DNA from: a virus
Taxonomy: Duplodnaviria; Caudoviricetes
Strand: one strand, 5' to 3'
DNA length: 25,581 bases
IMG/VR virus record: IMGVR_UViG_3300020220_000293
Location: 1 to 25,581 of that record
How positions within the stretch are numbered: the first letter of the stretch is position 1; each line of letters opens with the position of its first letter. Below the pieces are notes generated by a model that ran no database searches, was not told the DNA's origin, and saw only the letters and a program-made list of their open reading frames with translations. The translations under genes were made by a program, and so were the position numbers. Below, in pieces: positions 5,716 through 25,581 of the stretch.

Positions 5716-7671
5716 ATGGCAGATCAACAACCACAAAGGAACCTTTTTTCAACACTTAAACGCTTGTTTTCCACTGATGTTATCATCAGAAACGACGGCG
5801 GTACTCTCAAGACAGTCGATATCGATCAGATCCAGGTCGATGGCGTACTTCAAACTAATGCATTAGTAGATCGATTCAATCGTATCTATACTACCTCTAC
5901 CTCTTACGGTGTAAACTTAAACCTTTCGCAGAATTATCAAAGCGCCAGGGTACAGATTTACGCCGATTATGAAGCAATGGATACTGATCCTATTATTGCC
6001 TCAGCTTTAGATATTATCTCTGACGAGTGTACTCTTAAAAACTCTCAAGGAGATGTAATTCAAATACGTTCATCAGATGAAAACATTCAAAAGATACTCT
6101 ATAGCCTTTTCTATGATATACTAAACATTGAGTTTAATCTATGGTTCTGGATTAGAAATATGTGTAAGTATGGTGATTTTTTTCTAAAGTTAGAAGTTGC
6201 CGAAAAGTACGGAGTTTATAATGTAATTCCATTTTCCGCTTATAATATTGTACGTCTTGAAGGTACAAATCCTTCTAATCCTTCTGAAGTAATTTTTAAA
6301 TATGACCCTACTGCTGCATTAGGAGCTACTGCAGGATATTCTACATCATATCAGAATACTGATTTAGGTATAACGTTTTATAATTACGAAATGGCTCACC
6401 TTAGATTGATTGGTGATGTAAACTATCTACCTTACGGTCGCTCTTACCTAGAGCCAGGACGTAGATTATATAAACAATATATTTTAATGGAAGATGCGAT
6501 GATGATTCATCGTCTTACTCGTGCTCCTCAACGCCGTATTTTTTACGTAAATGTTGGAGCTATACCTCCAAACGAGGTTGAAAATTATATGCAGCGTATG
6601 ATTAATAAGATGAAAAAAACTCCTCTTGTTGATCAAAAAACAGGACAGTATAATTTGAACTATAACGTTCAAAACATGCTCGAAGATTTCTTTATACCTG
6701 TACGCGGTAACGACTCCTCTACACGTATTGATAATGCACCACCTCTGGAGTATAACGGTATTGAAGATATTAATTACTTACTTAACAAATTATTTGCAGC
6801 TCTTAAAATACCTAAAGCATTCCTTGGATATGAAAAAGATTTAACAGGTAAAGCAACATTGGCTGCTGAAGATATTCGCTTTGCACGTACTATTGAAAGA
6901 ATCCAGCGTATTGTTCTTTCAGAATTGACAAAGATAGCATTAGTACATCTTTACGCACATGGATACGACGATGAGTCGCTGACTAATTTTGAATTAAGTC
7001 TTACTACTCCTTCAATTATCTACGAGCAAGAAAGAATTGCCTTGATGAAAGAAAAAATGGATCTAGCCAGTCAAATGATGGAGACTAGTTTTTTACCTAC
7101 TGACTGGATATACGACAAATTATTTCACTTCTCTGAAGAGGAGTTTGATGAATATCGTGATTTAATAGTAGAAGATAAAAAAAGAATGTTCCGTATTAAG
7201 CAGATTCAAGAAGAAGGCAATGATCCTGCTGAAAGCGGCCAGGCTTACGGTACACCACATCAAATCGCTTCAATGTATGGCGGATACGGTACTGCACCGC
7301 TTTCAGGTCAGAACGTCCCGCAAGGTTATGATGAAACTAACCCTAGCGAACCTGTTAAATTACCCGGACGCCCTGCAAATAAAGTATCTCTTATAAATAC
7401 TTCAGAAGATCCACTAGGCAGAGACAGAATGGGGGTATACGATCTCAAATCTAAATCGATCTCCGGCGAAGATGGATTAAAAGCTAAATTTACAGGCGGA
7501 AGCCCTCTTTCACTTAGAGAGGGTAAAAATACAACCGTAGCTACTTATCTAACCAATAAAGCTGCATTTGAATCTTTTAAGAAGAACAAGAGAGTTAACA
7601 TATATGAAAATGATAAAAAAAGCGAATTGCTTGATGAATCACGTATTAGACCTGATTCAGATTTAATCTGA
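5716..7671 (+). CDS. portal protein (T4 gp20-like)
   Basis: LMEDAMMIHRLTRAPQRRIFYVNVGAIP, NMLEDFFIPVRG, IEDINYLLNKLFAALKIP and EDIRFARTIERIQ match gp20-family signatures. Confidence 0.95.
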   Translation: MADQQPQRNLFSTLKRLFSTDVIIRNDGGTLKTVDIDQIQVDGVLQTNALVDRFNRIYTTSTSYGVNLNLSQNYQSARVQIYADYEAMDTDPIIASALDIISDECTLKNSQGDVIQIRSSDENIQKILYSLFYDILNIEFNLWFWIRNMCKYGDFFLKLEVAEKYGVYNVIPFSAYNIVRLEGTNPSNPSEVIFKYDPTAALGATAGYSTSYQNTDLGITFYNYEMAHLRLIGDVNYLPYGRSYLEPGRRLYKQYILMEDAMMIHRLTRAPQRRIFYVNVGAIPPNEVENYMQRMINKMKKTPLVDQKTGQYNLNYNVQNMLEDFFIPVRGNDSSTRIDNAPPLEYNGIEDINYLLNKLFAALKIPKAFLGYEKDLTGKATLAAEDIRFARTIERIQRIVLSELTKIALVHLYAHGYDDESLTNFELSLTTPSIIYEQERIALMKEKMDLASQMMETSFLPTDWIYDKLFHFSEEEFDEYRDLIVEDKKRMFRIKQIQEEGNDPAESGQAYGTPHQIASMYGGYGTAPLSGQNVPQGYDETNPSEPVKLPGRPANKVSLINTSEDPLGRDRMGVYDLKSKSISGEDGLKAKFTGGSPLSLREGKNTTVATYLTNKAAFESFKKNKRVNIYENDKKSELLDESRIRPDSDLI

Positions 7672-7703: not shown

Positions 7704-8555
7704 ATGATTAAACATAGCAAATACAAAAATACAGGGATTTTATTTGAGCTTTTAGTACGTCAATCTACTTCAGATTTAATGTCTAATAAAGATCCAAAAG
7801 CTGTTAAGATTTTTAAGAAATACTTCACAGGCACAGAGTTAGGTAAAGAGTATAACCTTTATAATTCTGTTGCTAGTGCACCAAAACTTTCTGAATCTAA
7901 AGCTGAAATACTAATTAATACTATAGTTGAGCAAGCAAAAAAGCTTGATAGAGTTAAATTAGATAAAGAAAAGTATAATCTCATTAAAGAAGTAAAGAAA
8001 CATTACGATTTAGATGATTTTTTTAAAGCCAAAATAAATAATTATAAGATTTATGCTTCAGTATATACTCTTATTGAAAATCAACTTACCAAAAAGTTCT
8101 CAGATACTAAGCAGCTTGTAACAAATAAGCTTACTCTCCTTGAGTACATTACTAAAGAGTCTTTAACTGAGAGAAAAGTAGCTTCTAAGGTAGTTGAAGC
8201 GTTTATGAGAGAGGATAAAGAAATTAGAATCCTTGCCTATAAGATACTAGTTGAGAAGTTTAATGAAAAATACGCTAGTCTTTCTCTAGAACAAAAAGAT
8301 TTACTCAAAGAATATATTAATAACGTCTCTGATACTAAGAGACTAAGAACCTATCTCAATATTAAACTACTCGAAGTCAAAACCGAGCTCGTAGGCTTAA
8401 AGTCTAACGTCGGAGATAAGGTTCTTAAAATAAAACTGAATGAAGTTTTAAATTTTATTAAGCCCCTTGGTCCAAATGATTCAATCAAGGACGAGGTTTT
8501 GATCGGCTTAATGCAGTACTATGAATTGATCAGTGAGCTCAAAGCCATCAAATAA
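7704..8555 (+). CDS. helical head-assembly (prohead core-associated) protein, putative
   Basis: 283-aa Lys/Leu-rich helical ORF (KHSKYKNTGILFELL) between portal and protease; function inferred from position. Confidence 0.6.
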   Translation: MIKHSKYKNTGILFELLVRQSTSDLMSNKDPKAVKIFKKYFTGTELGKEYNLYNSVASAPKLSESKAEILINTIVEQAKKLDRVKLDKEKYNLIKEVKKHYDLDDFFKAKINNYKIYASVYTLIENQLTKKFSDTKQLVTNKLTLLEYITKESLTERKVASKVVEAFMREDKEIRILAYKILVEKFNEKYASLSLEQKDLLKEYINNVSDTKRLRTYLNIKLLEVKTELVGLKSNVGDKVLKIKLNEVLNFIKPLGPNDSIKDEVLIGLMQYYELISELKAIK

Positions 8556-9466
8556 TGAATAATCAATTTGCTACGCAATTCTTATTAGAAGATTTAAAAG
8601 ATCTGCCTGACGAAGATCTACCTTTCGATGAGAAGTTTATTGAGGCGATGATCGAAAAAGCTATGTCTTTTGGTTTAACTCGAATCGAAGCAGTAGCAAT
8701 GGTTAGAGAGATTATCAAGGGATTTAAGCTAGATGAAGATGGAGGAGCAGCAGCACCTGCAGGAGGTGGGGGTAGTACAACAGGCGGTGGAGTAACTAAC
8801 GGAGCAACAGTCAGCGGCGGACCTGAAGGAGAACAATACTTTGCCGGTACGCGAAAGAAAAAGATCAAAGAAGATGCACCGCGTCTTGCCGGATCACCTG
8901 CTAGGACTACTTCACAGGGTGCTAAAAACCTAAGTGCATATAGTAGCGTTGGTTTTACTAAGGCACCAAGTGCTCAAGAGGCCGGAAAAAAGATAAAGGG
9001 CGTACAGGTTAAGATGCTTTGGAAAGAAGGTCAGACTCCTGCCTGGGATGAAGTAAAAGAGTTTGTATTAAAGCTAGCAAAGCATTACGGATACGGAAAC
9101 GATTATGTAGATTATATGAAAGGCTGTCACCAACAAGGTCTAATTGTTAAACCACAGGATTTAGAGACTTGTACTGCAGGATACGGTGAGGCTCTAAGAG
9201 AGTACATAAACGAATCTCGTGCATATTCACAGTTTAAAAAGCAAACTGCCATTCGTCCTAAGGATCAGCAGATGCACGAGGCGGTAAAAATCATTCATAA
9301 GAAATTAGAAGAAGTATCCAGGCTTGTAGAATTCGCTCAGCAAATGAGAAATGAATTAACTGAAGGTGAAAACGCTCTTGAATATAAGCATAACACTAAA
9401 AAGATCTTTGAGAAAATCAATTCAAAAGTAGTAGAAGTGTATACAAAAACTAGAGATTTAAAATAA
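8555..9466 (+). CDS. putative prohead core protein carrying a copy of the MCP N-arm
   Basis: Several L/I-x-E sites; STTGGGVTNGAT is identical to MCP residues 62-73. Confidence 0.7.
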   Translation: MNNQFATQFLLEDLKDLPDEDLPFDEKFIEAMIEKAMSFGLTRIEAVAMVREIIKGFKLDEDGGAAAPAGGGGSTTGGGVTNGATVSGGPEGEQYFAGTRKKKIKEDAPRLAGSPARTTSQGAKNLSAYSSVGFTKAPSAQEAGKKIKGVQVKMLWKEGQTPAWDEVKEFVLKLAKHYGYGNDYVDYMKGCHQQGLIVKPQDLETCTAGYGEALREYINESRAYSQFKKQTAIRPKDQQMHEAVKIIHKKLEEVSRLVEFAQQMRNELTEGENALEYKHNTKKIFEKINSKVVEVYTKTRDLK

Positions 9467-9927: not shown

Positions 9928-11289
9928 ATGAAAAATATTCAAGCTCAATACCAAGACCTGTTAGAGGGTAAGATGTCTAAGAGCAACTTCATGCGTAATG
10001 TACGTATGCAGTTTCCACAACATATCTCACCTACTACCTCTTTTGACGATTCCGTAAGAATCCTAAAAGGAAAGCGTATTTTATCCGAAAACAAATCTAC
10101 TGAGTACAATAAGATAATTGATTTCATAAAATACGAAGTCGATTATGTTCCCGATGATATTGAAGTATATATGAAGTGGCTGGAACCTTATAGAACCATG
10201 GCTTTGAAAGCATTGCAATACAGGAAAAAGAATTTTAGTCAAATGTCAAAAGATAGGTTGCAATCTTTAGCTGAAGCTAAAAAGCCTGAAGGTGTTTACG
10301 GTCATAATCCAAACGCCGAAAACGACACCTACAGAGGTATCGATCACCTAAACTACTACCAGGTTTATCATGGCATTCAATTTGAGCTTGCTAAGATGCC
10401 AGAGATTACTGACGAGAATTACGTTAAGGCTAGAAAGAAAGTCGTTGATACTATCCTGAAAGATCCTGATGCTTACAAAGATTTGCAGCTTGCAAACTTT
10501 AAGGCCGTCAAGGAAATGGATAAGGATCTCGAAATGAAAGATGTTAAGAAAAACAATCTTAACGACAAGCCAAATGAGATGAAGGTTGTTAAGAAAGATG
10601 CTAAAGCCAACACGCAAGATACTCTCGAAAAGAAAGAAAAAAGAAAGTCTAAGACTGCTAAGGTACCTGTAATGACTCAAACTCCGAAAGGAAAACTTGA
10701 AGCATTTGCAACTCCCGGTAAGGAAAAAGTAATGGCTCTCAAAGAACATATTCTTGATGAAATGACTACCCGAAATCCTCATCACGAAGAGATTCATAAG
10801 GGTAACGAGGTTTATAAAAAAAAAGGTAACGGTACCCCCGGTAAAGTAGTTGATTTTGATGGTCATACTGCTACAGTAGAATGGCAAGATGGCCATAAAG
10901 AAGATTTACAAAAAAACGTACTTACAAAAGTTAAGCCTGAAAAGACTACTACAGAGCTTCCTTCTAGCGAAATGAAACCTCGTACAATGGTTCCATGGAG
11001 CAATAACGAAGAAAAGCTCAATGAAGATCCTGTAGGGCAGCAAGCAGCAGGCGATGAAGAAGAAGAGGCTAGCTTACGTGCTACCGTTATTAGGAAAGAG
11101 GATAAAATTAAAGATCTGAAAGAAAAACTTATTAAAGCGTTGACTAAAGAAGCCGGCGATCTGGTAAAAGCGGCTGACGGAACCTTTTTAGGCGCAACTG
11201 CTACAGGAAAAGGCAAAAGTTTAGCTAATAGTATAAAGAATCAATCTAAAGGCGGTATTAATCCCATCGTTACAACAATCAGCTCATGA
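9928..11289 (+). CDS. putative prohead core/internal protein, multi-segment
   Basis: 453 aa, Lys/Glu-rich, segments bounded by LLE, LSE, LAE, LKE, LDE and LNE; overlaps the protease start. Confidence 0.65.
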   Translation: MKNIQAQYQDLLEGKMSKSNFMRNVRMQFPQHISPTTSFDDSVRILKGKRILSENKSTEYNKIIDFIKYEVDYVPDDIEVYMKWLEPYRTMALKALQYRKKNFSQMSKDRLQSLAEAKKPEGVYGHNPNAENDTYRGIDHLNYYQVYHGIQFELAKMPEITDENYVKARKKVVDTILKDPDAYKDLQLANFKAVKEMDKDLEMKDVKKNNLNDKPNEMKVVKKDAKANTQDTLEKKEKRKSKTAKVPVMTQTPKGKLEAFATPGKEKVMALKEHILDEMTTRNPHHEEIHKGNEVYKKKGNGTPGKVVDFDGHTATVEWQDGHKEDLQKNVLTKVKPEKTTTELPSSEMKPRTMVPWSNNEEKLNEDPVGQQAAGDEEEEASLRATVIRKEDKIKDLKEKLIKALTKEAGDLVKAADGTFLGATATGKGKSLANSIKNQSKGGINPIVTTISS

Positions 11290-11915
11290 GTAAGCAAGTC
11301 TTAATAGAATATCTACCATTCACACCCTTACCTAGGCAACTACACGAGGCTAGAATGAATCCTAAAGCCCCACTTATTGTAGCCGGTCTCGTACAGGCTG
11401 CCGATAGACCTAATGCTAACAAGCGTATCTACGACTTTGATACTTTAGCTAAGCAAGTAAAACTCTATATCGACGGACCCATTGCTGAAAGAAGGGCGCT
11501 TGGGGAGCTTGATCACCCAGAATCTTCTGTTATTAACCTTAAGAATGTTTGTCATAATATTACTAGACTCTGGTGGGATGGTAAGAATCTCATGGGTGAG
11601 TTTGAAGTTTTAGATACACCTTCAGGTAATATACTACGTGAATTATTTATGAACAATATTACAGTCGGTGTCTCTTCACGTGCAATGGGGTCGGTTTCAC
11701 CAATAGGTGAAGGTCTTGTTCAAGTAGAAGATGACTTAGAATTGATTTGCTGGGATTTCGTTTCTACACCTTCAACATATGGTGCTTATGTAAAACCGTT
11801 GGAAGGATTAAATGAATCTTATGATCCAAACGGCGGTGAGGGTAGGAAAAACAGTATTAATAGACTAATTTCAGATATTATTTGCACCCAAAGCGGTGTT
11901 TGCTGTATAAAATAA
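11286..11915 (+). CDS. prohead protease (T4 gp21-like)
   Basis: NANKRIY, ALGELDHP (His), GVSSRAMGS (Ser) and WDFVSTPS motifs. Confidence 0.95.
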   Translation: MSKQVLIEYLPFTPLPRQLHEARMNPKAPLIVAGLVQAADRPNANKRIYDFDTLAKQVKLYIDGPIAERRALGELDHPESSVINLKNVCHNITRLWWDGKNLMGEFEVLDTPSGNILRELFMNNITVGVSSRAMGSVSPIGEGLVQVEDDLELICWDFVSTPSTYGAYVKPLEGLNESYDPNGGEGRKNSINRLISDIICTQSGVCCIK

Positions 11916-12702: not shown

Positions 12703-14022
12703 ATGGAAAATCAAGAATTGTTTAAGCAAGCAATCCTTGACGCAAAGGCTGTTCGTGAGACTGCAATGGCTGCCGCCAGAACTACTCTCGCTGAGCATTT
12801 TGAACCTTTCATCAAGGAAACCATGGCAAAAGAACTCACAAAAGAAGAGCACGACACCATGGAAGAGGATAATGAAATGGAAGAAGCCATGAAGCATCAT
12901 AAAAAACATGATGCTACTGAAATGGAAGAAGCCATGAAGCATCATAAAAAACATGATGCTACTGAAATGGAAGAAGCCATGAAGCATCATAAAAAACATG
13001 ATGCTACTGAAATGGAAGAAGCCATGAAGCATCATAAAAAACATGATGCTACTGAAATGGAAGAGTCTACACTAGATGAAATCTTAGCCGAGCTAGATGC
13101 TCTTTCTGAAGAAAATATCGAAGAAGGAGATCACACAGTCGATGAAGGACACGTTCCCGAAGACGGCTACGTTGGAAAAGCAGGCAGAGGTGCAACCGGT
13201 TATAATGAACGCGCCGGAGTATCACATGGCGATGGAAAACTTCACGAAGCTGATGATGAAAAAGAAGAAGAAGACGACGAGGCTGAAGAAGCCGGCGAGG
13301 ACCTTACTAAAGACATCGAAGCGGCTAGAGGCGGTGAAGAGCAAGAAGTAGTTGATATTACTGTAGGTGAATTGAAAGACATCATTCGTGATGTATTCAT
13401 GCAATTACAGGGCGGTGATATGGCTCCTGGAGCATCACTAGATGGCGGTACTGAACTTGCAACAGATTTAGGAAGCGGCGGAGAAATGGAGGCAGGAGAA
13501 GAAGAAATCTCTCTTGATGAAATTCTAGCTGAACTTGAAGAAGAAGAGCATAAAATGGAAGAAGTTAAGAAAAAGCATCACCACAATGATAAAGTAGATG
13601 AAGGTACAGGACCGGGTGGTGAGATCGATCCTAAAGCCGAAAGCACTTACAAGGTTGAAGAAATTAAGAAAGAGCTTAATGAAGCTGTTAAAACGATAAA
13701 AGCACTTAAAACCGAACTTAATGAAATCAATCTTTTCAGTGCAAAACTTCTATATGTAAATAAAATATTCAAGGCAAAAAATCTTTCTGAATCACAAAAA
13801 ACGAAAGTAATCAACGCATTTGACAGAACAACAACAATCAAAGAGGTTGAGAATACTTACAAAACTTTACTTGAGTCAATTAGTGTAGAAGCTAAAAAAA
13901 CTTCACTTAAAGAATCCGTAGGTTTTGCATCAAAACCAATCGGTAGCGCTCCAGCTCGTCCGATTGTTGAAGCCGATGCTTTTGTATCAAGATGGCAACA
14001 GCTTGCTGGAATAAAAAAATAA
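12703..14022 (+). CDS. prohead core scaffolding protein (T4 gp22-like role)
   Basis: Very acidic, coiled-coil C-terminal half, directly upstream of MCP, many L/I-x-E sites, ends in RWQQLAGIKK. Confidence 0.85.
   Translation: MENQELFKQAILDAKAVRETAMAAARTTLAEHFEPFIKETMAKELTKEEHDTMEEDNEMEEAMKHHKKHDATEMEEAMKHHKKHDATEMEEAMKHHKKHDATEMEEAMKHHKKHDATEMEESTLDEILAELDALSEENIEEGDHTVDEGHVPEDGYVGKAGRGATGYNERAGVSHGDGKLHEADDEKEEEDDEAEEAGEDLTKDIEAARGGEEQEVVDITVGELKDIIRDVFMQLQGGDMAPGASLDGGTELATDLGSGGEMEAGEEEISLDEILAELEEEEHKMEEVKKKHHHNDKVDEGTGPGGEIDPKAESTYKVEEIKKELNEAVKTIKALKTELNEINLFSAKLLYVNKIFKAKNLSESQKTKVINAFDRTTTIKEVENTYKTLLESISVEAKKTSLKESVGFASKPIGSAPARPIVEADAFVSRWQQLAGIKK
12874..13064 (+). repeat. perfect 45-bp in-frame tandem repeat, 4 copies plus a partial
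   Basis: Unit gaaatggaagaagccatgaagcatcataaaaaacatgatgctact encodes EMEEAMKHHKKHDAT. Confidence 0.95.
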
Positions 14023-14048: not shown

Positions 14049-15731
14049 ATGTCAAACCTAGTTAATTCCCTTTTAGAAAGCGCTAACCCATATACCGATC
14101 AAATGGGGGTTAGTCAGAAACTTGCTAAGAAGTGGGCTAAGTCCGGCCTACTCGAGGGTTTGAAAGATTACGACCGAACTAATATGGCCGTTATTCTTGA
14201 AAACCAAGCAAAACAACTCGTACTTGAATCTTCTACAACTGGTGGTGGCGTAACCAACGGTGCAACTTTTACTCCTGGTAATGGTGAGCAGTGGGCTGGT
14301 GTAGCTTTACCTCTCGTTCGTAAGATCTTCGGACAAATTGCATCTAAAGAGTTCGTTAGCGTACAGCCAATGAACCTTCCTGCTGGTCTAGTATTCTACT
14401 TAGATTTCCAGTATGGTAACAACATCCCTAAGCCTTTCGTAAAGGGACAATCTGTTTATGGTACTCTAAACCAAACAGCTACTAGCGGATTCGGTAACTT
14501 AGCCTCTGGTGGTCTTTATGGTCAAGGCCGTTACGGATATTCTATCAACCAGTTTTCTGCTTCTGCAGGTACAGTTGTAACAACTGCCGCAACTTTTGCT
14601 AACGTTAACTTCAACAATGACTACTCTCAGTCTGTTGTAGATAGCAAGATGATTCAGATCGCAGTTCCTACTGCTTCTTTAAGCACCCCTGACCTTAACG
14701 GTATCCGTGCTTTCGAATTGAGCGCTAGCTCTGCTATACTATCCCCTTCTACTTTGATTAATGATTTTACTACTTTATCCGGTGGCGATATCTTATTCTA
14801 TGTAAGCGGATCAAATGCAGCAGCTATCGATGCTGTAACCGGTTCGATTATTGTATTCTACAATAAGCAAACCAATTTCCAAACTCGCGGTGATGTTGAA
14901 GATGCTCCTGGCGATACACCAACACCATTCTCTAATCCGAACGCTGCTTCTTCAACTCAGATCGTTATACCCGAGATTAACGTTCAGATGAAGTCAGAGA
15001 CCATCTCAGCTAAGACACGTAAGTTGAAAGCACAATGGACTCCGGAATTCGCTCAAGATTTGAATGCTTATCATTCTCTTGATGCTGAAGCAGAGTTAAC
15101 CGGTATGCTTTCAGAGTATATCTCTCTTGAGATCGATCTCGAGATCCTCGATATGTTAATCGAGAATGCTCAGACAGTTGCAAACTGGTCTGCACAGATT
15201 GGTAACCAAATTAACGCAGCTGGTACTGCTTACACTAGCAATACTGCTGGTGCTTACTATAACCAGATGTCTTGGTTCCAAACTTTAGGTATTAAGCTTC
15301 AAGCTGTATCTAATAAAATCCACCAACTGACTTTACGTGGCGGTGCTAACTTCCTAGTATGTTCACCAACTGTAGCTACAATCCTTGAATCTATTCCTGG
15401 ATTTGCAGCTGATACTGATGGTGCTGCAGATACTATGAAATATGCATTCGGCGTTCAGAAAATTGGTCAGTTAAACAGTCGTTATAAGGTTTACAAGAAC
15501 CCTTATATGACCGAGAACACTATTCTATTAGGGTTCCGTGGTAACCAATTCCTAGAGTGTGGTGCCGTTTACGCTCCATACGTACCGTTAATTATGACAC
15601 CTCTAGTGTACGATCCAGATACCTTTACACCAAGAAAAGGTATTATGACTCGCTACGCTAAGAAGATGATTCGTCCTGAATACTACGGTAAGGTATACGT
15701 TGCTAACTTAAACGTAGCTCAAGCTAGCTAA
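14049..15731 (+). CDS. major capsid protein (T4 gp23-like)
   Basis: ILENQ, LPLVRK, VSVQPMNLPAGLVFYL, AKTRKLKAQWTPEFAQDLNAYHSLDAEAEL, YAPYVPL and FTPRKGIMTRYA; start at ATG 14049 after an A-rich tract. Confidence 0.97.
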   Translation: MSNLVNSLLESANPYTDQMGVSQKLAKKWAKSGLLEGLKDYDRTNMAVILENQAKQLVLESSTTGGGVTNGATFTPGNGEQWAGVALPLVRKIFGQIASKEFVSVQPMNLPAGLVFYLDFQYGNNIPKPFVKGQSVYGTLNQTATSGFGNLASGGLYGQGRYGYSINQFSASAGTVVTTAATFANVNFNNDYSQSVVDSKMIQIAVPTASLSTPDLNGIRAFELSASSAILSPSTLINDFTTLSGGDILFYVSGSNAAAIDAVTGSIIVFYNKQTNFQTRGDVEDAPGDTPTPFSNPNAASSTQIVIPEINVQMKSETISAKTRKLKAQWTPEFAQDLNAYHSLDAEAELTGMLSEYISLEIDLEILDMLIENAQTVANWSAQIGNQINAAGTAYTSNTAGAYYNQMSWFQTLGIKLQAVSNKIHQLTLRGGANFLVCSPTVATILESIPGFAADTDGAADTMKYAFGVQKIGQLNSRYKVYKNPYMTENTILLGFRGNQFLECGAVYAPYVPLIMTPLVYDPDTFTPRKGIMTRYAKKMIRPEYYGKVYVANLNVAQAS

Positions 15732-23057: not shown

Positions 23058-25581
23058 ATGGCGAATGAATTTATTGTCCGTAACGGCCTAAAGGCCCTAA
23101 ATAATTCACAAGTTACAGGATCTCTCTCTATTTCCGGATCACTTGCCGTTCCGGCTATACCTTTAGGTTCAACTGAAACTAATGTAGTAGTAACTGATAC
23201 GGATGGAACTTTTAAATATAGAACTAATCTTAGTCTCCAAGGTACACAAGGAATTCAAGGTATTCAAGGCAATACCGGTACTCAAGGCATCCAAGGTACG
23301 CAAGGCATACAAGGTACTCAAGGAATTCAAGGTATTCAAGGTATTCAAGGTAATAACGGAACCCAAGGTATCCAAGGTACGCAAGGCATACAAGGTACTC
23401 AAGGAATTCAAGGTATTCAAGGTAATAACGGAATCCAAGGCATTCAAGGAATACAAGGAACCCAAGGAATACAAGGAACCCAAGGAATACAAGGTAATAC
23501 AGGAATACAAGGTATACAAGGCATACAAGGAACTACCGGTCCTCAAGGAACTCAGGGCGTTCAGGGCTCAACCGGAACCCAGGGACTACAGGGCATACAA
23601 GGTATTCAAGGTACACAAGGAACACAGGGTATTCAAGGAATTCAAGGCTTAACCGGAACCCAAGGAATTCAAGGCGTACAGGGTATTACCGGTCCACAAG
23701 GCACGCAAGGTACTCAAGGAATTCAAGGGGTACAAGGCATAATTGGTGCTCAAGGTAGTCAAGGAACACAAGGTATTCAAGGAATACAAGGAATACAAGG
23801 AATACAAGGTACACAGGGTACTCAAGGAATACAAGGTACACAAGGCACACAAGGTATTCAAGGAGTGCAAGGAACTACCGGTACACAAGGTACACAAGGA
23901 ATACAAGGTACACAAGGAATACAAGGCGTACAGGGTATAACCGGTATTCAAGGTATTCAAGGTATACAAGGTATACAAGGTTCTCAAGGCACTCAGGGGA
24001 TTCAAGGCGTACAAGGTACTCAAGGAATACAAGGAACACAAGGAACACAGGGAACACAAGGTACCCAAGGCATTCAAGGAGTGCAAGGAACTACCGGTAC
24101 TCAAGGTATTCAAGGTATTACAGGACCACAAGGTATACAAGGTATTCAAGGTATTCAAGGTACACAGGGTATTCAAGGCACGCAAGGTACGCAAGGCATT
24201 CAAGGTATACAGGGAATACAAGGTACGCAAGGGACTCAAGGGACTCAAGGAACGCAGGGTATCCAAGGCATACAAGGTACGCAAGGAATACAGGGTATAC
24301 AGGGGGTACAAGGCATAACTGGAACCCAAGGTATCCAGGGTATTACTGGCCCTCAAGGTACGCAAGGAATCCAAGGTACGCAAGGAATTCAAGGAATTCA
24401 AGGGATTCAGGGTACCCAAGGTACACAGGGTATACAAGGCCCCCAGGGTACACAAGGAATACAAGGTATTCAGGGAATTCAAGGTACAACAGGACCGCAA
24501 GGTACTCAAGGTACTCAAGGAATTCAAGGGATACAAGGTAACACTGGTACGCAAGGAACCCAGGGAACTCAAGGAATCCAAGGTATACAAGGAATACAAG
24601 GTACGCAAGGTACACAGGGAACTCAAGGAACTCAAGGAATACAAGGCATTCAAGGTACACAAGGAATTCAAGGTATTCAAGGTACAACCGGTACACAAGG
24701 TATACAAGGCATACAAGGAACTACCGGTCCTCAAGGAACTCAAGGCATCCAAGGTACTCAAGGTACTCAAGGCATCCAAGGCATTCAGGGAATACAAGGT
24801 ACACAAGGCACAACTGGCGCTCAAGGTATACAAGGTAATACTGGTACTCAAGGAACACAAGGAACACAGGGAACGCAAGGTACGCAAGGTACGCAAGGCA
24901 TTCAAGGAGTACAAGGCTTAACTGGAACTCAAGGTATCCAAGGTATTACAGGACCGCAAGGTACACAGGGTGTACAAGGTACCCAAGGTATACAGGGTAT
25001 TCAAGGCACGCAAGGTATACAGGGTATTCAAGGCATACAGGGAATACAAGGTACGCAAGGTACTCAAGGTACAATTGGTACACAAGGTATACAAGGCATA
25101 CAAGGTACTCAAGGAACACAAGGAATCCAGGGTATACAAGGCACCCAAGGAACTCAAGGAATTCAAGGTATACAAGGTACAACAGGACCTCAAGGTACGC
25201 AAGGAACCCAAGGTACTCAAGGGATACAAGGTAATACCGGTACCCAAGGAACACAAGGAACACAAGGAACCCAAGGTATCCAAGGCAATACCGGTATCCA
25301 AGGTATCCAAGGTATTCAAGGTATACAAGGAACTACTGGACCTCAAGGAACACAAGGAACACAAGGTATCCAAGGTATTCAAGGTATACAAGGAACTACT
25401 GGACCTCAAGGAACACAGGGAACACAAGGAACAACTGGTACGCAGGGCATTCAAGGCGTAACTGGTCCTCAAGGTACTCAAGGCATACAAGGTATTCAAG
25501 GAACACAAGGTACTACTGGTGCACAAGGAATTCAAGGTATACAAGGTATAACTGGCCCTACTGGACCGACAGGTCCGCAAG
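23058..25581 (+). CDS. giant collagen-like fibre protein (truncated by window end)
   Basis: MANEFIVRNGLKALNNSQVTGSLSISGS... 61-aa head, then Gly-X-Y from 23241 to the end; absent from the ORF track because there is no stop in the window. Confidence 0.9.
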   Translation, partial: MANEFIVRNGLKALNNSQVTGSLSISGSLAVPAIPLGSTETNVVVTDTDGTFKYRTNLSLQGTQGIQGIQGNTGTQGIQGTQGIQGTQGIQGIQGIQGNNGTQGIQGTQGIQGTQGIQGIQGNNGIQGIQGIQGTQGIQGTQGIQGNTGIQGIQGIQGTTGPQGTQGVQGSTGTQGLQGIQGIQGTQGTQGIQGIQGLTGTQGIQGVQGITGPQGTQGTQGIQGVQGIIGAQGSQGTQGIQGIQGIQGIQGTQGTQGIQGTQGTQGIQGVQGTTGTQGTQGIQGTQGIQGVQGITGIQGIQGIQGIQGSQGTQGIQGVQGTQGIQGTQGTQGTQGTQGIQGVQGTTGTQGIQGITGPQGIQGIQGIQGTQGIQGTQGTQGIQGIQGIQGTQGTQGTQGTQGIQGIQGTQGIQGIQGVQGITGTQGIQGITGPQGTQGIQGTQGIQGIQGIQGTQGTQGIQGPQGTQGIQGIQGIQGTTGPQGTQGTQGIQGIQGNTGTQGTQGTQGIQGIQGIQGTQGTQGTQGTQGIQGIQGTQGIQGIQGTTGTQGIQGIQGTTGPQGTQGIQGTQGTQGIQGIQGIQGTQGTTGAQGIQGNTGTQGTQGTQGTQGTQGTQGIQGVQGLTGTQGIQGITGPQGTQGVQGTQGIQGIQGTQGIQGIQGIQGIQGTQGTQGTIGTQGIQGIQGTQGTQGIQGIQGTQGTQGIQGIQGTTGPQGTQGTQGTQGIQGNTGTQGTQGTQGTQGIQGNTGIQGIQGIQGIQGTTGPQGTQGTQGIQGIQGIQGTTGPQGTQGTQGTTGTQGIQGVTGPQGTQGIQGIQGTQGTTGAQGIQGIQGITGPTGPTGPQ
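23241..25580 (+). repeat. degenerate 9-bp repeat encoding 260 Gly-X-Y triplets (mostly GIQ/GTQ)
   Basis: GGN-(ATH/ACN)-CAR pattern; Gly codons at 23241 and 25572 are in the same 9-nt register. Confidence 0.95.

Follow-up and report, generated by a model that had tools for sequence, protein, structure and literature searches.

In the window analysed here (the whole stretch of 25,581 nt), the same twelve residues, STTGGGVTNGAT, are encoded twice: at 8774-8809, in ORF 8555 (residues 74-85), and at 14232-14267, in the gene for the major capsid protein (MCP, residues 62-73). What is the predicted start of the mature shell protein doing in a second gene? Few viral pathways have been studied as thoroughly as T4 head assembly, yet there is still debate over the trigger of expansion and over the compensation for missing subunits at the portal vertex. 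A gene of its own for a copy of the arm that moves upon expansion, one that follows the cognate MCP from one distant T4-like group to another, points to a component of this machinery that has gone unrecognised.

Gene calls, Pfam and PHROG identify the window as the head and neck genes of a T4-like phage that is uncultured, and the window is by itself the genome record for this phage. The genes run in the order terminase (4111), portal (5716), ORF 7704, ORF 8555, two unannotated genes, protease (11286), scaffold-like gene (12703) and MCP (14049). The features that bear on the copy are listed in Table 1.

Table 1. Features of the head gene block related to the arm copy, with positions in the window.
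Feature	Position	Strand	Evidence and remarks
Portal protein, gp20 family; start of head operon context	5716..7671	+	PF07230, E 7.5e-70
ORF 7704, 283 aa, unannotated, after the portal gene and ahead of ORF 8555	7704..8555	+	No PHROG or Pfam family; arm-motif gene directly 3' in 129/142 pairs
ORF 8555, 303 aa, putative prohead-core polyprotein bearing the arm copy	8555..9466	+	365 homologues (alignment A1); matches neither Pfam nor PHROG families at the chosen cut-offs
L-D-E61, predicted gp21-type cleavage site ahead of the copy	8729..8737	+	Fits L/I-X-E as described in PMC9026906; E in 22/23 clade orthologues
12-residue Gly/Ala linker, only in the window's clade	8738..8773	+	Offsets after E: 9-14 residues in 19/142, 0-1 residue in 114/142
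Copy of the predicted mature N-terminal arm of MCP (N-fist equivalent)	8774..8848	+	Exact 12-mer at 8774-8809; AlphaFold pLDDT <50 for residues 58-115
Basic tract RKKK, 3' of the copy	8852..8863	+	At least 4 K/R per 10-residue window downstream in 126/142 relatives
I-K-E106, predicted second cleavage site	8864..8872	+	E in 23/23 clade orthologues; predicted release of D62-E106 (8738-8872, 45 aa)
Second conserved stretch, D107-E158, bounded by predicted sites	8873..9028	+	pN/pS 0.30
Conserved C-terminal helical hairpin	9206..9463	+	With D107-E158, ties long-form to short-form relatives; weak match to phrog_2280 (unknown function), E 0.002
gp21-type prohead protease, predicted cutter of ORF 8555 and MCP	11286..11915	+	PF03420, E 2.3e-25, score 89.7 vs cut-off 27; phrog_207
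Acidic protein ahead of MCP, scaffold (gp22-like) candidate	12703..14022	+	Position and make-up only; no family match
MCP, gp23 family, 560 aa, start ATG 14049	14049..15731	+	PF07068, E 1.5e-76; phrog_138; T4 gp23 gives the top fold matches
Predicted maturation site E60 of MCP, with the arm S61-W82 that is the template of the copy	14226..14294	+	E60 at 14226-14228, invariant in 86 MCPs; W82 aligns to T4 I91 (weak domain score)

The arm and its copy

Both loci were retranslated, and the 12-residue identity reported in the preliminary description was found again, with the same count of codons: they differ at seven of the twelve positions (AGT and TCT among them). Of the 36 bases, 28 are identical. 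The match does start at the second residue after MCP E60, as had been stated, and the copy is flanked by LDE61 and IKE106, which enclose the 45 residues claimed. BLASTP aligned ORF 8555 residues 74-95 with MCP residues 62-82 with 16 identities in 22 positions (E 3e-5 in a single comparison). The local score between the two proteins was 78, which none of 5000 shuffles with local composition kept could reach (maximum 56); exact matches in 1000 of these shuffles were no longer than six residues. Among the 435 pairs of the 30 proteins in the window, the 12-mer was the second-longest exact match.

The description of the segment as an exact copy of the arm stood for the first 12 of its about 22 residues in this phage, whereas the remaining part has drifted (VSGGPEGEQY in ORF 8555 vs FTPGNGEQW in MCP). 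Position 86 is F in 19 of the 23 orthologues of the window's clade. Since a 12-residue linker follows E61, the N-terminus of the window's released copy would also differ from that of MCP.

What is copied was judged by comparison with T4. HMMER gave a strong match between MCP and gp23 over the whole protein and placed W82 on gp23 I91, with a weak domain score for the arm stretch. By this alignment, MCP residues 61-82 correspond to the N-fist of gp23 (residues 66-91). The N-fist is described as disordered and inside the unexpanded T4 head, and as outside after expansion, when it becomes ordered and touches four subunits; at the portal, the N-fist region is disordered in five subunits (PMC9958956, PMC7136217, PMC9546572). 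The cleavage motif of gp21 is given as L/I-X-E (PMC9026906). MCP has V rather than L or I at P3, so its cleavage site is predicted from the position of E60 and from its invariance in the 86 aligned MCPs. 

AlphaFold gave a pLDDT below 50 for the MCP arm (residues 59-111) as well as for the copy region, and modelled ORF 8555 as short helices and disorder (pTM 0.29). A predicted complex of two arm-less MCP copies (residues 84-556) with the 45-aa peptide had a score of 0.00 and speaks neither for nor against binding. ORF 8555 had no match in a fold search at E up to 0.001 or by tblastn against cultured phages, its family had none in PDB sequence searches, and the ESM Atlas returned only unnamed viral clusters, under 0.9.

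The copy is under purifying selection. Among the 23 clade orthologues, its pN/pS was 0.29, compared to 0.67 and 0.55 in variable parts (with synonymous sites near saturation, these ratios are rough). Ten of its positions are invariant in all 23, E61 is kept in 22 and E106 in all of them. The 57 long-form relatives (see below) use the same codon as their cognate MCP at 360 of 803 identical residues, where 348 were expected, and the same-codon share was 0.448 with the cognate and 0.441 with non-cognate MCPs. The likeness between copy and arm is thus held at the protein level, as had been proposed. Recent gene conversion is out, since synonymous codons are randomised and the same-codon share is at chance level. 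The orthologues, which keep the segment under purifying selection, also speak against the match being a one-off conversion or a low-complexity coincidence.

Relatives of ORF 8555 and tracking of the MCP

Among the fetched loci, 184 had both an MCP arm and an ORF 7704 orthologue; five more were dropped because the arm pattern failed. The motif was present in 182 of the 184 and absent from two, and removal of duplicates and of L120 left 142 distinct pairs, among which the L121 segment is a weak, doubtful pick. The motif was located with seed alignments, as a single motif HMM missed the window's clade. An arm-like long form is found in 57 of these pairs, while the other 85 have a short motif at the same place, with the pattern E, x-S-T-T, four residues, G-Y-x-T-P-x-A-F. 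Sequence outside the motif links 94 of the 142 (41 long and 53 short, including Mel-JY01), and the other 48, immuto among them, are linked by position and motif only. Among cultured phages, the nearest by MCP are the immuto phages of Flavobacterium (56% identical) and the Microcystis phage Mel-JY01 (50%).

A hydrophobic-X-E site lies ahead of the segment in 125 of the 142, compared to 40% of all Glu residues in the same proteins; because the Glu ahead of the segment was chosen by script, only the P3 residue and the offset count as tests. The orthologues are 58-529 aa long and differ in the inserts or domains that lie between their Glu sites. In Flavobacterium phage vB_FspM_immuto_2-6A, gp072 (73 aa) consists of a leader, the motif and a basic tail and nothing more, so that these three parts presumably form the conserved core. 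This protein and WWT39308.1 of Mel-JY01 share gene position, leader, Glu site and basic tail with ORF 8555, but they carry the short motif, which is at chance against their own MCP (its score was reached in 563 of 2000 shuffles for immuto and 830 of 2000 for Mel-JY01). Both are annotated as hypothetical. WWT39308.1 has a sequence link to ORF 8555 outside the motif, whereas gp072 shares position and motif only.

The long and short forms interchanged at least 13 times on the tree, and degenerate forms of the segment occur in L034, L298 and L079. With a 10-column profile of the short motif, the arm ranked first in 27 of the 142 MCPs (3.7 expected by window share), the arms being rich in G, S and T; among single phages, it came first in P-HM2 by a hair, and not first in RM378, Mel-JY01 and L117. 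The short motif may, as these ranks weakly suggest, be an older arm copy. In L281 and L020, the N-terminal part of the core gene has what resembles the initial half of the short motif, and then a complete arm copy, which suggests that the long form may have arisen by insertion into the short form.

The preliminary description had proposed that the copy tracks the cognate MCP. Between distant groups, this tracking is strong: when the copies of the window, T4, P-HM2, GAP32 and 121Q were cross-compared, they scored 67-110 against the MCP of their own group and at most 45 against the others, and none of 2000 shuffles reached the score in each case. Low-complexity chance as the source of the match was thus rejected, both for the window (0/5000 shuffles) and for these five phages' copies (0/2000 each). 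Between sister pairs, taken from a FastTree tree built without the arm, the tracking is modest. For the long form, 10 of 24 independent pairs were for the cognate arm, 4 against and 10 tied (sign p 0.09), with a Wilcoxon p of 0.011 for the 14 non-zero values. The cognate arm had a median rank of fifth among 111 distinct arms. Private words common to copy and MCP occur in single genomes, with 18 residues in L044 and 7 in L070, L045 and L223. On average, the tracking fails in the immuto-like clade, where long copies scored 45.0 against their own clade's arms and 51.5 and 54.1 against those of two other clades. For the short forms, which make up 85 of the 142, there is no measurable tracking (15 pairs for the cognate, 15 against, 8 ties). 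The copy therefore follows its MCP in part, with lag and lapses, and not in lockstep.

Arm copies in cultured phages and likeness to known systems

The same design is found in T4, a parallel that the preliminary description had overlooked. The product of gene 61.1 (NP_049649.1, 54 aa, annotated hypothetical, phrog_1823) consists of a leader ending in I-K-E, a D, a copy of the gp23 N-fist, KKKK and a Glu. In 1414 frames from 100 kb of the 169-kb T4 genome, gp61.1 was the best non-self match to the N-fist, with a score of 71 vs 40 for the next. A scan of 50 kb of T4 head genes, a stretch outside which gene 61.1 lies, gave no arm copy. The protein scored 82 against gp23 and 35 against the gp24 arm, the latter elsewhere in the protein, and the window's segment scored best against gp61.1 (57) among the 142 segments. 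The start of gp61.1 is a leader of internal-protein type, with a weak match to phrog_5341 (E 0.31).

In cyanophage P-HM2, an arm match (76% identical, E 6e-9) stands at the start of PHM2_171 and is followed by a K/R tract; this copy has no Glu ahead of it. Searches of the whole records of GAP32 and 121Q found the arm copy in small ORFs. In T4, GAP32 and 121Q, the likeness also spans residues before the Glu. The arm-copy gene adjoins primase or helicase genes in all four phages, compared to the head operon in the window. The design of an arm copy, a lysine tract and, mostly, a Glu site is confirmed for T4 gp61.1, P-HM2, GAP32 and 121Q. (In 121Q, L373:1465-1659, and GAP32, L374:1486-1653, the copy runs on into the helix after the arm, and its gene lies two genes after a replicative-helicase-like gene.)

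A loose first look, whose blanks are weak, gave no second arm match in RM378, SCTP-2, immuto, Mel-JY01 and three complete uncultured records; in a fourth such record, G003 (locus L044), the MCP and one copy are present. Where whole records were searched, there was one long copy per genome, and no second long copy turned up in the examined records of short-motif phages.

As to earlier reports, gp61.1 is in no PDB entry, and a literature search, judged by its listings, gave no paper on its function. The available text of the T4 portal-vertex paper names no extra peptide, and that of a 2026 portal-neck-tail paper has no occurrence of "61.1". No separate copy of the gp23 arm is described in the accessible parts of the literature searched (including PMC5694885, PMC11965321, PMC7824862 and PMC12929629). 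The arm copy is genuine and conserved, and within the reach of these searches it has no published description.

Like ORF 8555, gp61.1 has an X-X-E site, a copy of the arm of its own MCP and a lysine tract. Unlike ORF 8555, it is encoded beside the primase gene and not in the head operon, and has 54 aa without further domains. Neither window 8735-8875 nor immuto gp072 gave a profile match to phrog_1823 or phrog_2086 at E up to 1, as expected if each copy follows its own MCP. The likeness between gp61.1 and ORF 8555 is of low complexity and so does not establish common descent.

With the T4 class of gp67, gp68 and the internal proteins (IP), ORF 8555 shares its place in the gene order, after the portal and before the protease, as well as an abundance of L/I-X-E sites and the predicted processing by a gp21-type protease. 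As expected of this class, it is encoded together with a gp21-type protease and a gp23-type MCP in the head gene block, and its L/I-X-E sites LDE61 and IKE106 are at conserved positions. In contrast to ORF 8555, gp67 and gp68 lack a gp23-arm copy; they are broken down into fragments, most of which exit the head. No PHROG or Pfam match links ORF 8555 to the gp67, gp68 or IP families. At most, ORF 8555 would be a core protein of the gp21-processed kind by its predicted workings, and not a member of any named family.

The cleaved T4 vertex protein gp24* is a known case of a second gene that gives an MCP-like N-terminus, at the vertices. However, gp24 has the whole capsid fold, whereas in ORF 8555 only about 22 residues are copied, without a capsid domain: neither the model nor the fold search (E up to 0.001) gave the HK97 capsid fold expected of a gp24-like vertex paralogue. 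The nearest working analogy for an arm supplied in trans is the portal vertex protein (PVP) of Oshimavirus P74-26, described as a distinct protein that contributes strands to MCP through its N-arm at the site of the missing penton (PMC12407722). It differs in being globular, added from the outside and from an unrelated phage family, and the available text reports no copy of MCP-arm sequence in it (PMC12407722).

Possible roles of the copy

The reading that we tentatively prefer, and whose probability we put a little short of even, is that ORF 8555 is a prohead-core protein that is cut by the protease, and that the freed arm-plus-lysine peptide binds in trans where MCP's own arm binds in the maturing shell. 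The ORF 8555 protein would be built into the prohead core, where the gp21-type protease would cut at E61 and E106 and free the 45-residue peptide. Upon shell maturation, the peptide would fill the grooves otherwise taken by MCP's own arm, either at sites that no subunit reaches, with the five around the portal as the obvious candidates, or at sites seeded early in expansion, while the lysine tract may tether it to DNA or to the acidic core.

Binding in trans is suggested because the copy corresponds to an N-terminus that exists only after cleavage, with the propeptide left out, because it ends where the N-fist ends and is far longer than a protease motif, and because there is one copy per genome. 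The location of the gene between portal and protease, the place of T4 core genes 67 and 68, supports it further. It is weakened by the 85 of 142 relatives in which the short motif suffices, without a likeness to the MCP of the same phage above chance, and by the drifted second half and the preceding 12-residue linker of the window's copy. The immuto-like clade, whose long copies match the arms of other clades better than their own, and the lack of a copy in RM378 and SCTP-2 in the loose first look also count against it. A location at the portal vertex is conjecture, and this version is weakened in addition because the subunits missing there in T4 are gp24, yet gp61.1 copies gp23 (82 vs 35), and because neither the PDB nor the available text of the two T4 papers mentioned above shows such a peptide.

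A broader form of this proposal is that T4-like phages in general, T4 included, keep a gene for a protease-released spare arm that would complete or seed the arm lattice in trans, with its lysine tail on the DNA, and that would have been overlooked as a small peptide nearly identical to the N-terminus of MCP. We regard this as doubtful, with clearly less than an even chance. The head-operon position in the present lineage is an added reason for a role in head assembly, while the T4 gene hides beside the primase gene. T4, through gene 61.1, and the cultured immuto phages would both allow a direct test, and the copy should surprise T4 specialists.

Alternatively, the copy could act in the prohead before maturation, by binding a partner of the MCP N-terminus (scaffold, portal or the 283-aa neighbour) and so helping to nucleate the shell on the core or tuning head size, to be discarded after cleavage. 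The gene lies in the head operon, near the portal gene and ORF 7704, and the rest of ORF 8555, with 14 hydrophobic-X-E sites, resembles a multiply cut core protein. In the unexpanded T4 head, the N-terminal region of gp23 is inside and is described as probably contacting gp22, and the length mutations A66D, A94V and G97S fall within the copied stretch or beside it (PMC9546572 section 13). These mutations tie the region to the scaffold stage too, and to that extent count against binding in trans. However, the likeness does not begin ahead of the cleavage Glu and, in this lineage, does not include the propeptide helix that precedes E60, and a role before maturation gives the conserved basic tract nothing to do. 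We consider such a role unlikely, although it survives best among the alternatives.

The segment could also mimic the MCP cleavage site and act as a decoy or timer that competes for the gp21-type protease or helps to switch it on, consistent with the hydrophobic-X-E ahead of the motif in 125 of 142 relatives and with the likeness that reaches residues before the Glu in T4, GAP32 and 121Q. T4 gp21 is described as needing only L/I-X-E, though, and the likeness extends 20-30 residues beyond the site. Moreover, a linker of 9-14 residues parts the Glu from the copy in the window's clade and the P-HM2 copy has no Glu before it, which makes a decoy quite improbable.

Equally improbable, in our judgement, is a docking tag that brings variable cargo into the head, or a peptide ejected with the DNA via its lysine tract to soak up a host capsid sensor. 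The varied inserts between Glu sites in orthologues of 58-529 aa would suit cargo, as would the internal-protein-type leader of gp61.1 (a weak match, phrog_5341, E 0.31) and the location of the gene outside the head operon, close to primase or helicase genes, in T4, P-HM2, GAP32 and 121Q. On the other hand, the presumed loading of other window proteins uses a different common leader, the minimal orthologues have no cargo (73 aa in immuto, 54 aa in T4), and the design recurs in phages of Bacteroidota, cyanobacteria and enterobacteria, which makes a partner from the phage more plausible than one from the host. Finally, a neutral remnant of an ancient duplication of, or conversion from, the MCP gene, kept as filler in a disordered linker, could explain a glycine-rich segment that is predicted to be disordered, that interchanges between long and short at least 13 times on the tree and that has degenerate forms (L034, L298, L079), but this very improbable reading is largely refuted by the pN/pS of 0.29 with ten positions invariant in 23/23 (synonymous sites near saturation), by a same-codon share at chance level and by the recurrence of the design in four cultured phages that belong to distant groups.

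Several other features of the window were observed. Small acidic genes starting at 573, 2148, 2412, 9612, 11923 and 12252 have a common N-terminal leader with a Q/K-x-I/L-A-G motif and a Glu at its end; the leaders of 2148 and 2412 are identical over 15 residues, and a similar word occurs at the end of the scaffold-like protein (12703-14022), which also contains four tandem copies of a 15-residue unit rich in His, Lys and Glu. A long repetitive stretch at about 23170-25581, with period-three protein repeats in several frames and no single plus-strand ORF listed across the whole of it, is probably a collagen-like tail-fibre gene. A glycoside-hydrolase-type endolysin (1540-2139; phrog_181, E 1.8e-73) lies among the small leader genes 5' of the terminase. 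ORF 7704 is conserved in sequence and position across the lineage, immuto and Mel-JY01 included, and its product is a candidate partner of the arm copy.
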